Shown here one piece after another: positions 57,089 through 58,470 of a stretch of DNA of 64,000 bases. The notes under the pieces were generated by a model that saw only the letters and a program-made list of their open reading frames with translations, was not told the DNA's origin and did no database searches. The stretch comes from Eledone cirrhosa (lineage: Eukaryota): assembly GCA_964016885.1 (NCBI GenBank), contig OZ024741.1:129456001-129520000 (forward strand), written 5' to 3'. Numbering within the stretch: position 1 is the first letter of the stretch; every line of letters starts with the position of its first letter. The position numbers were made by a program, and so were the translations under genes.

Positions 57089-58470
57089 TTAAAATAACAG
57101 ATTAAAGTTTAAGCAAAGAATCGCTGCTTTCACCCTTAACGGGATCTTCTGAAACTAACAAAGTCAATCTGTAAACGCAGAACTGGATATTTCAAAAAAC
57201 GTTGCAACCGGAGGAAGACAGGAAGACGATACTTTGGTTCGTGGTAACGTTCGCTGGCAAAGAACGGGAAAAAACGTACAGACCACATCTTAAACAAAAA
57301 ATCTGAGGCAATTTCGGCTTGTAAACATAAATTGCACAAAACTTTCCTGTATTACAGCCCTACGTTATACCCTAACGGATAGCACGATCTATACGGGGAT
57401 ATTTTACGTCTTGATGTGGGTGCTAAGTATATGTTTTGTTTATTCCTTTACTTATTTGCATAGGTAAGTATATATTACCCGTATGTTTTGTGAAGGTATG
57501 TATACCTTCTCGTACGTGTATTTGACTGTTATAGCGTATAATTTTTACATATTTTGGTATTTAGGGTTTGGCTATGTGTATACGGGAGTTTTGCGTCCGC
57601 GTGAGGGTGCAGGTTCGTACGTATGGTGGGTGTGTGTATATGTGTACTTCTTGTTTTAGTTGACTTACGTCTCCGAACATTCGTGTATTTATATGTAGGT
57701 ATGAGTGTGCGCTTGTTATATACGTATTTATTTACTTATATACGTTTATATAATTATTTATTTATTTGTACACAAGCATACACACACACACATATTTATA
57801 TGTGCGTGGTTTTGTATACCCATGGTAAGGTTTTGCGTATGCTTGTGTATGTACGTATCTGTTTGCGTGTATGTATTTATTTGTTTCTATTACTTCTGTA
57901 TTGTATTTATTTACTTTGTCCTTAACTCTGTAGTGGAGATTCATTTGGTCTCCTACTTAGAATTTTAGTCTACGATTTCTGCTATACCATTTACGTGGTT
58001 TTGTCTTTGCGGGCTATTGTTCTCCACGCTCCACATATGACTTATTATCTTCGTTTTTTCGTTCATTGCCAGAGAACGTCTCTACGCACCACCTAAGAGA
58101 ACATTAGTCTACGACCTCTTTTATACCATAAACGTGGTTCTGTCTTTGCGCGTAATTGTTTTTCACCGCTCCTATTAATGACGTATTATTCGTTTTTTCC
58201 CGTTCTTTGCCAGCGAACGTTACCACGAACCAAAGTATCGTCTTCCTGTCTTCCTCCGGTTGCAACGTTTTTTGAAATATCCAGTTCTGCGTTTACAGAT
58301 TGACTTTGTTAGTTTCAGAAGATCCCGTTAAGGGTGAAAGCAGCGATTCTTTGCTTAAACTTTAATCTGTTATTTTAATAAATATTTGCTCTACGGTTCT
58401 TATATATTTGATATATATTTTCCTTATCGAGCCCTCTTTGGATTTTAGTCTTCAATTTTATTATTATTAC
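57089..58470 (+). mobile_element. 5'-truncated Penelope-like element with inverted terminal repeat, ORF end, 3' UTR, terminal repeat and tail
   Basis: ~188-bp inverted arms at 57089-57276 and 58191-58378. ORF end DHILNKKSEAISACKHK...* at 57278-57382. ~90-bp tail; (TA)n on both sides. Confidence 0.85.
58311..58361 (+). ncRNA. Variant hammerhead motif (CAGAAGA core, U4A)
   Basis: AGTTT-CAGAAGA-T-CCC-GTTAA-GGG-T-GAAA-GCAG-CGATTCT-TTGC-TT-AAACT; all three stems pair. Confidence 0.65.

Follow-up and report, generated by a model that had tools for sequence, protein, structure and literature searches.

What becomes of a hammerhead ribozyme when one letter of its consensus core is replaced throughout the family of mobile elements that carries it? 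The question is raised by a motif at 58311–58361 (+) of the window, that is, the whole 64-kb stretch of Eledone cirrhosa DNA analysed here, in which the core strand reads CAGAAGA in place of CUGANGA. An earlier reading of the letters alone (the sequence-only reading) had reported the same strand in six copies, and all six do carry it: 798–848 (+), 34813–34863 (+), 57106–57156 (−), 58311–58361 (+), 63155–63205 (−), and 63446–63496 (+). The 7-mer CAGAAGA by itself scarcely exceeds chance in the window, with 13 matches against 6.9 expected.

The motif at 58311–58361 lies at the 3′ end of a terminal repeat and was recognised from its sequence and with a model of 24 unrelated hammerheads of the Hydra clade, which aligns to it column for column. 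It has the order of a type I hammerhead, with three stems around the core, and the elements listed by the sequence-only reading were all found in place, namely stem I AGTTT/AAACT, stem II CCC/GGG, stem III AGCAG/TTGCT, and the C-U-U triplet. The core strand C3 A4 G5 A6 A7 G8 A9 occupies 58316–58322 (+), the variant A4 being base 58317; it is followed at 58323–58335 (+) by U10.1, stem II with the loop GUUAA, and U11.1, stem II being closed by U10.1·U11.1, and at 58336–58356 (+) by G12 A13 A14 A15.1, stem III (G15.2–C16.2, with 15 nt between A15.1 and U16.1), U16.1, and U17. Canonical hammerhead numbering predicts a cut after 58356. A short palindromic stem III of 6–8 nt, as in the dimer-type minimal hammerheads of Penelope-like elements (PLEs), is absent, and 15 nt stand here. 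C3, G5, A6, G8, A9, G12, A13, A14, A15.1, U16.1, and H17 are all present and the same in six subfamily groups, while A replaces the consensus letter U4; the motif is therefore a hammerhead variant and not a canonical member. According to folding, stem I continues distally in a further helix, whose 5′ strand, 58295–58303 (+), is complementary to 58362–58370; its 3′ strand and a common 3′ end of the copies make up 58362–58377 (+), after which (TA)n begins. An optional tail at 58378–58460 (+), common to the copy at 63446 and to an intact locus, L061, upstream of its ATG, equals the start of the 5′ UTR of a downstream unit.

The motif at 57106–57156 belongs to an inverted, 5′-truncated copy at 57082–57276 (−), 99% identical over 195 nt. 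The copy at 63446–63496 (+) represents a second young subfamily, its motif identical to that at 58311–58361 and a 256-nt alignment 86% identical; its inverted partner at 63155–63205 (−) has G12 changed to A and a change in loop II. Short copies were found at 34813–34863 (+), of the second young subfamily and with one loop III change, and at 798–848 (+), with G15.2 changed to C, and a seventh copy at 1949–2024 (+) is 5′-truncated inside the core. The five intact copies are the top five matches of the Hydra-clade model in the 64 kb, with a modest 16 bits and an E value of about 0.09; that model was built from 24 unrelated metagenome motifs, only rows with a 7-nt or 6-nt stem III being used.

A CUGANGA descriptor, as the sequence-only reading anticipated, is unable to match the CAGAAGA motif, and the Rfam hammerhead models gave no match to it at E values up to 10, the Rfam search of the window returning only microsatellite noise among the 150 matches listed of 170. 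Rfam likewise misses a canonical minimal hammerhead at 39942–39981 (−), so that U4A alone does not explain its failure here. That site and 1695–1761 (−) of the window both hold canonical minimal hammerheads that belong to other families.

The assignment of the motif to the terminal repeat of a PLE was borne out. The sequence-only reading had further linked it to the end of a GIY-YIG ORF at 57278; a remnant of the element's ORF is indeed there, but 57278 is its start, its end lies at 57382, and it holds no GIY-YIG-like motif. The remnant, 57278–57382 (+), comprises the last 34 codons and the stop, identical to residues 675–708 of the protein P0001 encoded by L061, an intact unit consisting of a motif, a 708-codon ORF, and a second motif. 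P0001 is a single ORF product of 708 aa with a reverse transcriptase (RT) followed by a C-terminal GIY-YIG-like domain (FDI 253, YRDD 348, Y...YIG 587–602), an assignment read from motifs, as Pfam gave P0001 no family and searches of Pfam and PDB yielded no useful match. Hydra-clade PLEs are marked by RWK, DKT, CxCx5C, CxxC, and CxH motifs (PMC8557442), and P0001 carries RWR 37, DKT 115, CNCRNRADC 566, CDLC 661, and CKH 689; insertion at (TA)n is likewise shared with that clade (PMC8557442). Terminal repeats, an inverted truncated copy, the tail, and (TA)n targets are all present in L061 and the window taken together, and the arrangement with an inverted truncated copy has been described for PLE insertions (PMC8557442). 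Judged by these sequence marks, the host is a Hydra-clade PLE. Database relatives of P0001 are mostly 39–46% identical to it, the best 57%. Many copies have open frames of 713 codons at 97–99% identity in the RT, so that the family is young and also a successful one. A search of the full element by descriptor, Rfam, and model turned up no further canonical hammerhead.

The claim that U4A is the state of the family and not decay was upheld by motif searches of the 3.0-Gb assembly with position 4 left free, in young and older copies alike. The main pattern, free at positions 3–7, gave 19,588 exact matches, against none for the reversed control, and position 4 is A in all 100 of the matches listed. 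A pattern demanding C, G, or T at that position had 187; by eye, the 100 listed have G in 37, T in 35, and C in 28, and the copies with T that were fetched lie mostly at insertion junctions. About 99% of young copies thus have A. Older copies were collected with anchors outside 58316–58356 (38 matches and 181 matches, 100 of the latter listed); 124 were analysed. Of the rows listed, one match was unrelated and was discarded, and four others from related copies, each of them with CAG, were not used. These copies are 8.5–13.8% diverged from their own group majority, yet 118 of the 123 with a letter at position 4 have A and one has U, the same as for the neighbouring core A's.

Candidates for a sister family with U4 were tried and rejected. 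CUGA with the same stem II has 931 matches in the genome, of which 28 of 30 fetched were by eye fold-back or inversion junctions, the remaining two being one truncation junction and one copy with intact flanks; since nearly all are fold-back junctions at a near-palindrome centred on position 4, these matches are uninformative on the founder. A U4 sister of the old subfamilies yielded 10 matches, that is, eight junctions and two single copies, and a looser search for a distinct U4 family gave 334, with none among the 100 matches listed. No other fixed non-U4 family of Hydra type was found in the genome (21 matches, with mixed letters), nor did a descriptor free at position 4 find any non-U4 match outside the U4A family in 425 kb of DNA examined. 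About ten families of minimal hammerheads with U4 were seen in those 425 kb.

Comparison with relatives places the variant within a known clade. The Hydra-clade hammerheads of Craig et al. 2021 (PMC8557442, File S2) are likewise type I and sit in the terminal repeat close to its 3′ end. The 25 families given there all have CUGA and C15.2–G16.2, with a short and mostly palindromic stem III, in contrast to A4, G15.2–C16.2, and 15 nt between A15.1 and U16.1 in the U4A family, whose motif also differs from the published Hydra-1_oBim motif (PMC8557442). U10.1·U11.1 and U17, common to the U4A family, were counted by eye in 14 and 10 of the 25, respectively (PMC8557442). Among metagenome loci, 61 of 78 have U4 (56 scored motifs, two of them U3–A8, and five CUGA candidates), most of the other 17 being cut off or without a motif; U10.1·U11.1 occurs in 23 and U17 in six of 43 Hydra-type motifs, and as features of the clade neither is a sign of decay. 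The metagenome relatives have C15.2–G16.2 and a stem III of 6–8 nt, versus the flipped pair and 15 nt here, and U4 is also the letter in other Hydra-type families of the genome (nuclease domains at 32% and 46% identity). On these comparisons, A4, the flipped 15.2–16.2 pair, and the longer stem III are private to the U4A family.

Several scattered relatives were noted in passing. A Hydra-type family with 46% identity in the nuclease domain, at about 1130–1270 of L001, has a U4 hammerhead whose copy shows, by eye, a stem-loop II of about 110 nt. Two other Hydra-like nuclease domains survive as remnants at 49091–49462 and 38153–38404 of the window (at 40% and 31% identity to P0001), and no intact hammerhead could be located after either of them. 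On the metagenome contig L220, a single-copy Hydra-type motif about 120–170 nt after the ORF reads A4 and U6, a two-letter core change that may be decay, and a U4C match upstream of an ORF in L204 is of another type.

Conservation among subfamilies bears on whether the motif is in use. The older copies were sorted by flank letters only into four groups of 36, 9, 50, and 24 copies, with five young-like copies set aside, and were compared with two young groups of 40 and 9 copies, part of whose regions were chosen from the 19,588-match search. Among the six groups, which share ancestry and whose old flanks are noisy, and with stem I excluded from the count as a search anchor, the majority letters differ at seven of 13 free positions versus none of the 28 in core and stems (p = 8e-5); the seven are N7, three in loop II, and three in loop III. 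In the 5′ flank, 16 of 55 have changed, against the same 0/28 (p = 0.0008), and a filter of 70% support leaves 6/13 free, 0/28 constrained, and 13/55 flank positions changed (p = 0.0004 and 0.003). N7 switches from A to U in one group with its neighbours unchanged, and loop II varies while mostly retaining its last A, with loops GCUUA (together with U7), GCUUUA, and GUAAUA in old subfamilies. No compensatory change among subfamilies was found in the pairs of stem II or of proximal stem I, and none inside stems I–III generally; the 15.2–16.2 pair is flipped relative to all relatives. One pair further out than distal stem I, the older copies have T–A in 75 and C–G in 15 of 124 cases, but the young groups no longer pair there. 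The unchanged constrained positions, set against the free and flanking ones, point to selection on the fold with A4 in place, and the motif is probably functional; the persistence of one site cannot show selection on A4 itself.

As to what the function is, we lean, though not strongly, towards a Hydra-clade PLE hammerhead, with A4 in the sampled subfamilies, that likely still cuts the element's RNA after 58356, slowly and probably only with the help of the element's protein or of a second copy. A motif that no longer cuts fits nearly as well: the folded RNA would be bound by the element's protein or set the start of reverse transcription 20 or 100 nt downstream, and the loss of cutting would be harmless or useful, a reading that we consider a real but clearly lesser possibility. 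The stems are clearly conserved relative to the flank (0/16 changed, p = 0.015–0.03), while the unpaired core compared with the flank is only borderline (p = 0.06–0.10), as structural use would have it. In addition, intact genomic copies all span the cut site, and their templates must have been uncut or rejoined; 5′ junctions show no pile-up there (by eye, about 14 of 73 rows at 58356–58357 versus about 10 expected, and 13 at 58346), and no genomic fossil of cleavage was found among the 5′ ends, those of 30 loci included. Insertion of the anole element in vitro was unaffected by catalytic mutations, and reads ending at its cut site were absent (PMC11167929), and Naiad PLEs amplify without canonical hammerheads (PMC8557442). 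Against mere structure stands the pattern within the core: N7 changes, while C3, G5, A6, G8, A9, G12, A13, A14, and U17 are fixed, and none of 12 unpaired core positions changed versus 7/13 free ones (p = 0.005–0.015, and 0.005 in this contrast). This is the pattern that catalysis predicts, and a bound protein would need to read the same letters.

That the motif is a neutral relic, one founder having lost U4 and a dead ribozyme hitchhiking with an efficient enzyme, is improbable and, on the sequence evidence, largely refuted. A single origin would suffice for it, no U4 sister with the same stem III survives in the genome in searches that include the 100 matches listed of 334, and published mutational data make U4A damaging (PMC9901934). 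However, 0/28 constrained positions changed versus 13–16/55 in the flank, and the divergence of young from old groups, 12–22 of 95 positions in the flank, implies time enough for decay. A shape and core that stay fixed while loops and flanks drift are not the behaviour of a passenger.

Still less probable is that A4 has been kept because C3-A4-G5 serves as a 3′ splice acceptor preceded by pyrimidines, splicing disabling or rebuilding the core. The sequence does read pyrimidines and then CAG, the intron of Drosophila Penelope ends at stem I (PMC4209133), and one small old group keeps the motif AG with the upstream AG absent. The terminal repeat, however, has a GT-AG spliceosomal intron of 750 nt at 57464–58213 (+), established from spliced genomic junctions, the acceptor of which lies about 100 nt upstream of the motif. 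Among the 100 matches listed of 273 in the genome, 83 have precise spliced junctions and none is spliced at either motif AG (by eye, with the strongest donor searched), and no donor in the UTR would restore CUG. PLE copies are usually said to retain introns; from the same sample, about 200 precisely spliced genomic copies are estimated. The intron has alternatives at both ends, a second donor and a second acceptor that lies four bases before the first, and near its end, at 57959–58232, a stretch of about 135 nt is duplicated in tandem at 78% identity, which repeats an acceptor-like site.

Like U, inosine presents an imino proton, and given the editing habits of double-stranded RNA, of which inverted copies would form long stretches, A-to-I editing at position 4 could be imagined to switch the RNA on. 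This is speculation and most unlikely, since G, at 37 of the 100 matches listed, is not in excess at position 4, although cut RNA would not be copied, and since activity is weak in every mutant of the CUGA turn apart from the C3–G8 swap (PMC9901934).

In folding models, the strands 58295–58303 and 58362–58370 form a 9-bp distal stem I helix, with a pairing probability of 0.94 in one folding window. Against cutting, the active hammerhead fold is not the predicted minimum-energy fold, proximal stem I never exceeds a predicted probability of 0.16 in the eight contexts examined, and most copies have a folding z-score close to zero. The CUU triplet, too, is among the weakest cleavage triplets. Pairing of stem III between two strands is favoured in the model, at −12.9 versus 2 × −3.6 kcal/mol. 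Two alternative pairings were considered and set aside: an inhibitory helix of U2.3–A4 with U11.1–A15.1 reaches a probability of 0.40 in one window and at most 0.04 in seven others and was not relied on, and pairing of the core with loop III is possible in young copies, yet 48 of 124 older ones have U at N7, and the loop III changes are unmatched.

Published work makes it likely that U4A is slow. Perreault et al. 2011 (PMC3088659) describe a contact of U4 to the A6–N7 phosphate, and in a pairwise scan of another hammerhead, Roberts et al. (PMC9901934) found low activity in all CUGA-turn mutants except the C3–G8 swap. A slow hammerhead may nevertheless suffice, as a viroid U4C variant is weak in vitro and sufficient for infection in vivo (PMC3088659). 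The hammerhead of the anole PAc Poseidon element (Frangieh et al. 2024, PMC11167929), also that of a PLE, though of another clade and with a motif overlapping the start codon, cuts only with the element's protein, uncut RNA being the main template in vitro. Here, an ATG lies about 150 nt downstream of the predicted cut site. In the slow hammerhead that we favour, A4 would lack the imino contact of U4 to the A6–N7 phosphate and thereby lower the rate, and distal stem I, with a contact of U1.7 to the last A of loop II, may partly offset the slowing. Copies would be made from RNA uncut at the 3′ motif, so that slow cutting would cost the element little and may help it, while low or late cutting would keep the core under selection. 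The ribozyme would thus be slow, probably protein-assisted, and its slowness tolerated. More tentatively, it is conceivable that this is an active hammerhead with a purine at position 4 and a rebuilt stem III, in which a weakened core, and not dependence on a dimer, brakes the cutting of the template and the element's protein releases the brake.

Known systems offer partial parallels. The minimal PLE hammerheads of metazoans (Cervera and de la Pena 2014, PMC4209133) occur, as here, in terminal repeats and in massive copy number, have low activity in vitro, for which help from host factors has been proposed, and differ in that their core change is a paired U3–A8 swap with a minimal stem III, as opposed to A4 and a longer stem III. 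Natural core variants show that position 4 can vary with lower but sufficient activity and that U10.1·U11.1 is tolerated, the viroid U4C being a pyrimidine and the present variant a purine (PMC3088659). A U4A hammerhead did not appear in the full-text literature searched, nor did "CAGANGA" among the papers listed there, although variant-core figures and subscription papers on core mutagenesis may already show U4A. U4A is not named in the portions of PMC4209133 covering PLE minimal hammerheads or in the text, figures aside, of PMC3088659 on natural core variants, and the comparison also took in parts of PMC8557442, PMC6765202, PMC9901934, PMC11014351, PMC6155905, PMC7229834, and bioRxiv 10.64898/2026.07.22.740005. 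The U4A PLE family is thus likely to be a new hammerhead variant, under selection and probably slowed. U4 is counted in the consensus core, and hammerhead searches discard matches without it (PMC3088659); an A4 family of about 20,000 copies marks a blind spot of such searches. If A4 is active, the uridine of the U-turn would be dispensable in a ribozyme under selection, and entire families with copies in the tens of thousands would escape descriptor searches. The subfamily history also bears on whether PLE hammerheads process precursor RNA (PMC4209133) or are parasites of the elements (PMC8557442), as has been proposed.

Inverted junctions fold back at two near-palindromes, 58314–58320 and 58355–58365; most of the 931 CUGA matches trace to the former, and both may be a record of snap-back priming by the RT. 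Elsewhere in the window, several long LINE-like ORFs lie between 12330 and 29434, one of them of 1204 codons at 19900–23511, and a short interspersed repeat family has 16 copies between 4971 and 63782, presumably resembling the octopus SINEs.
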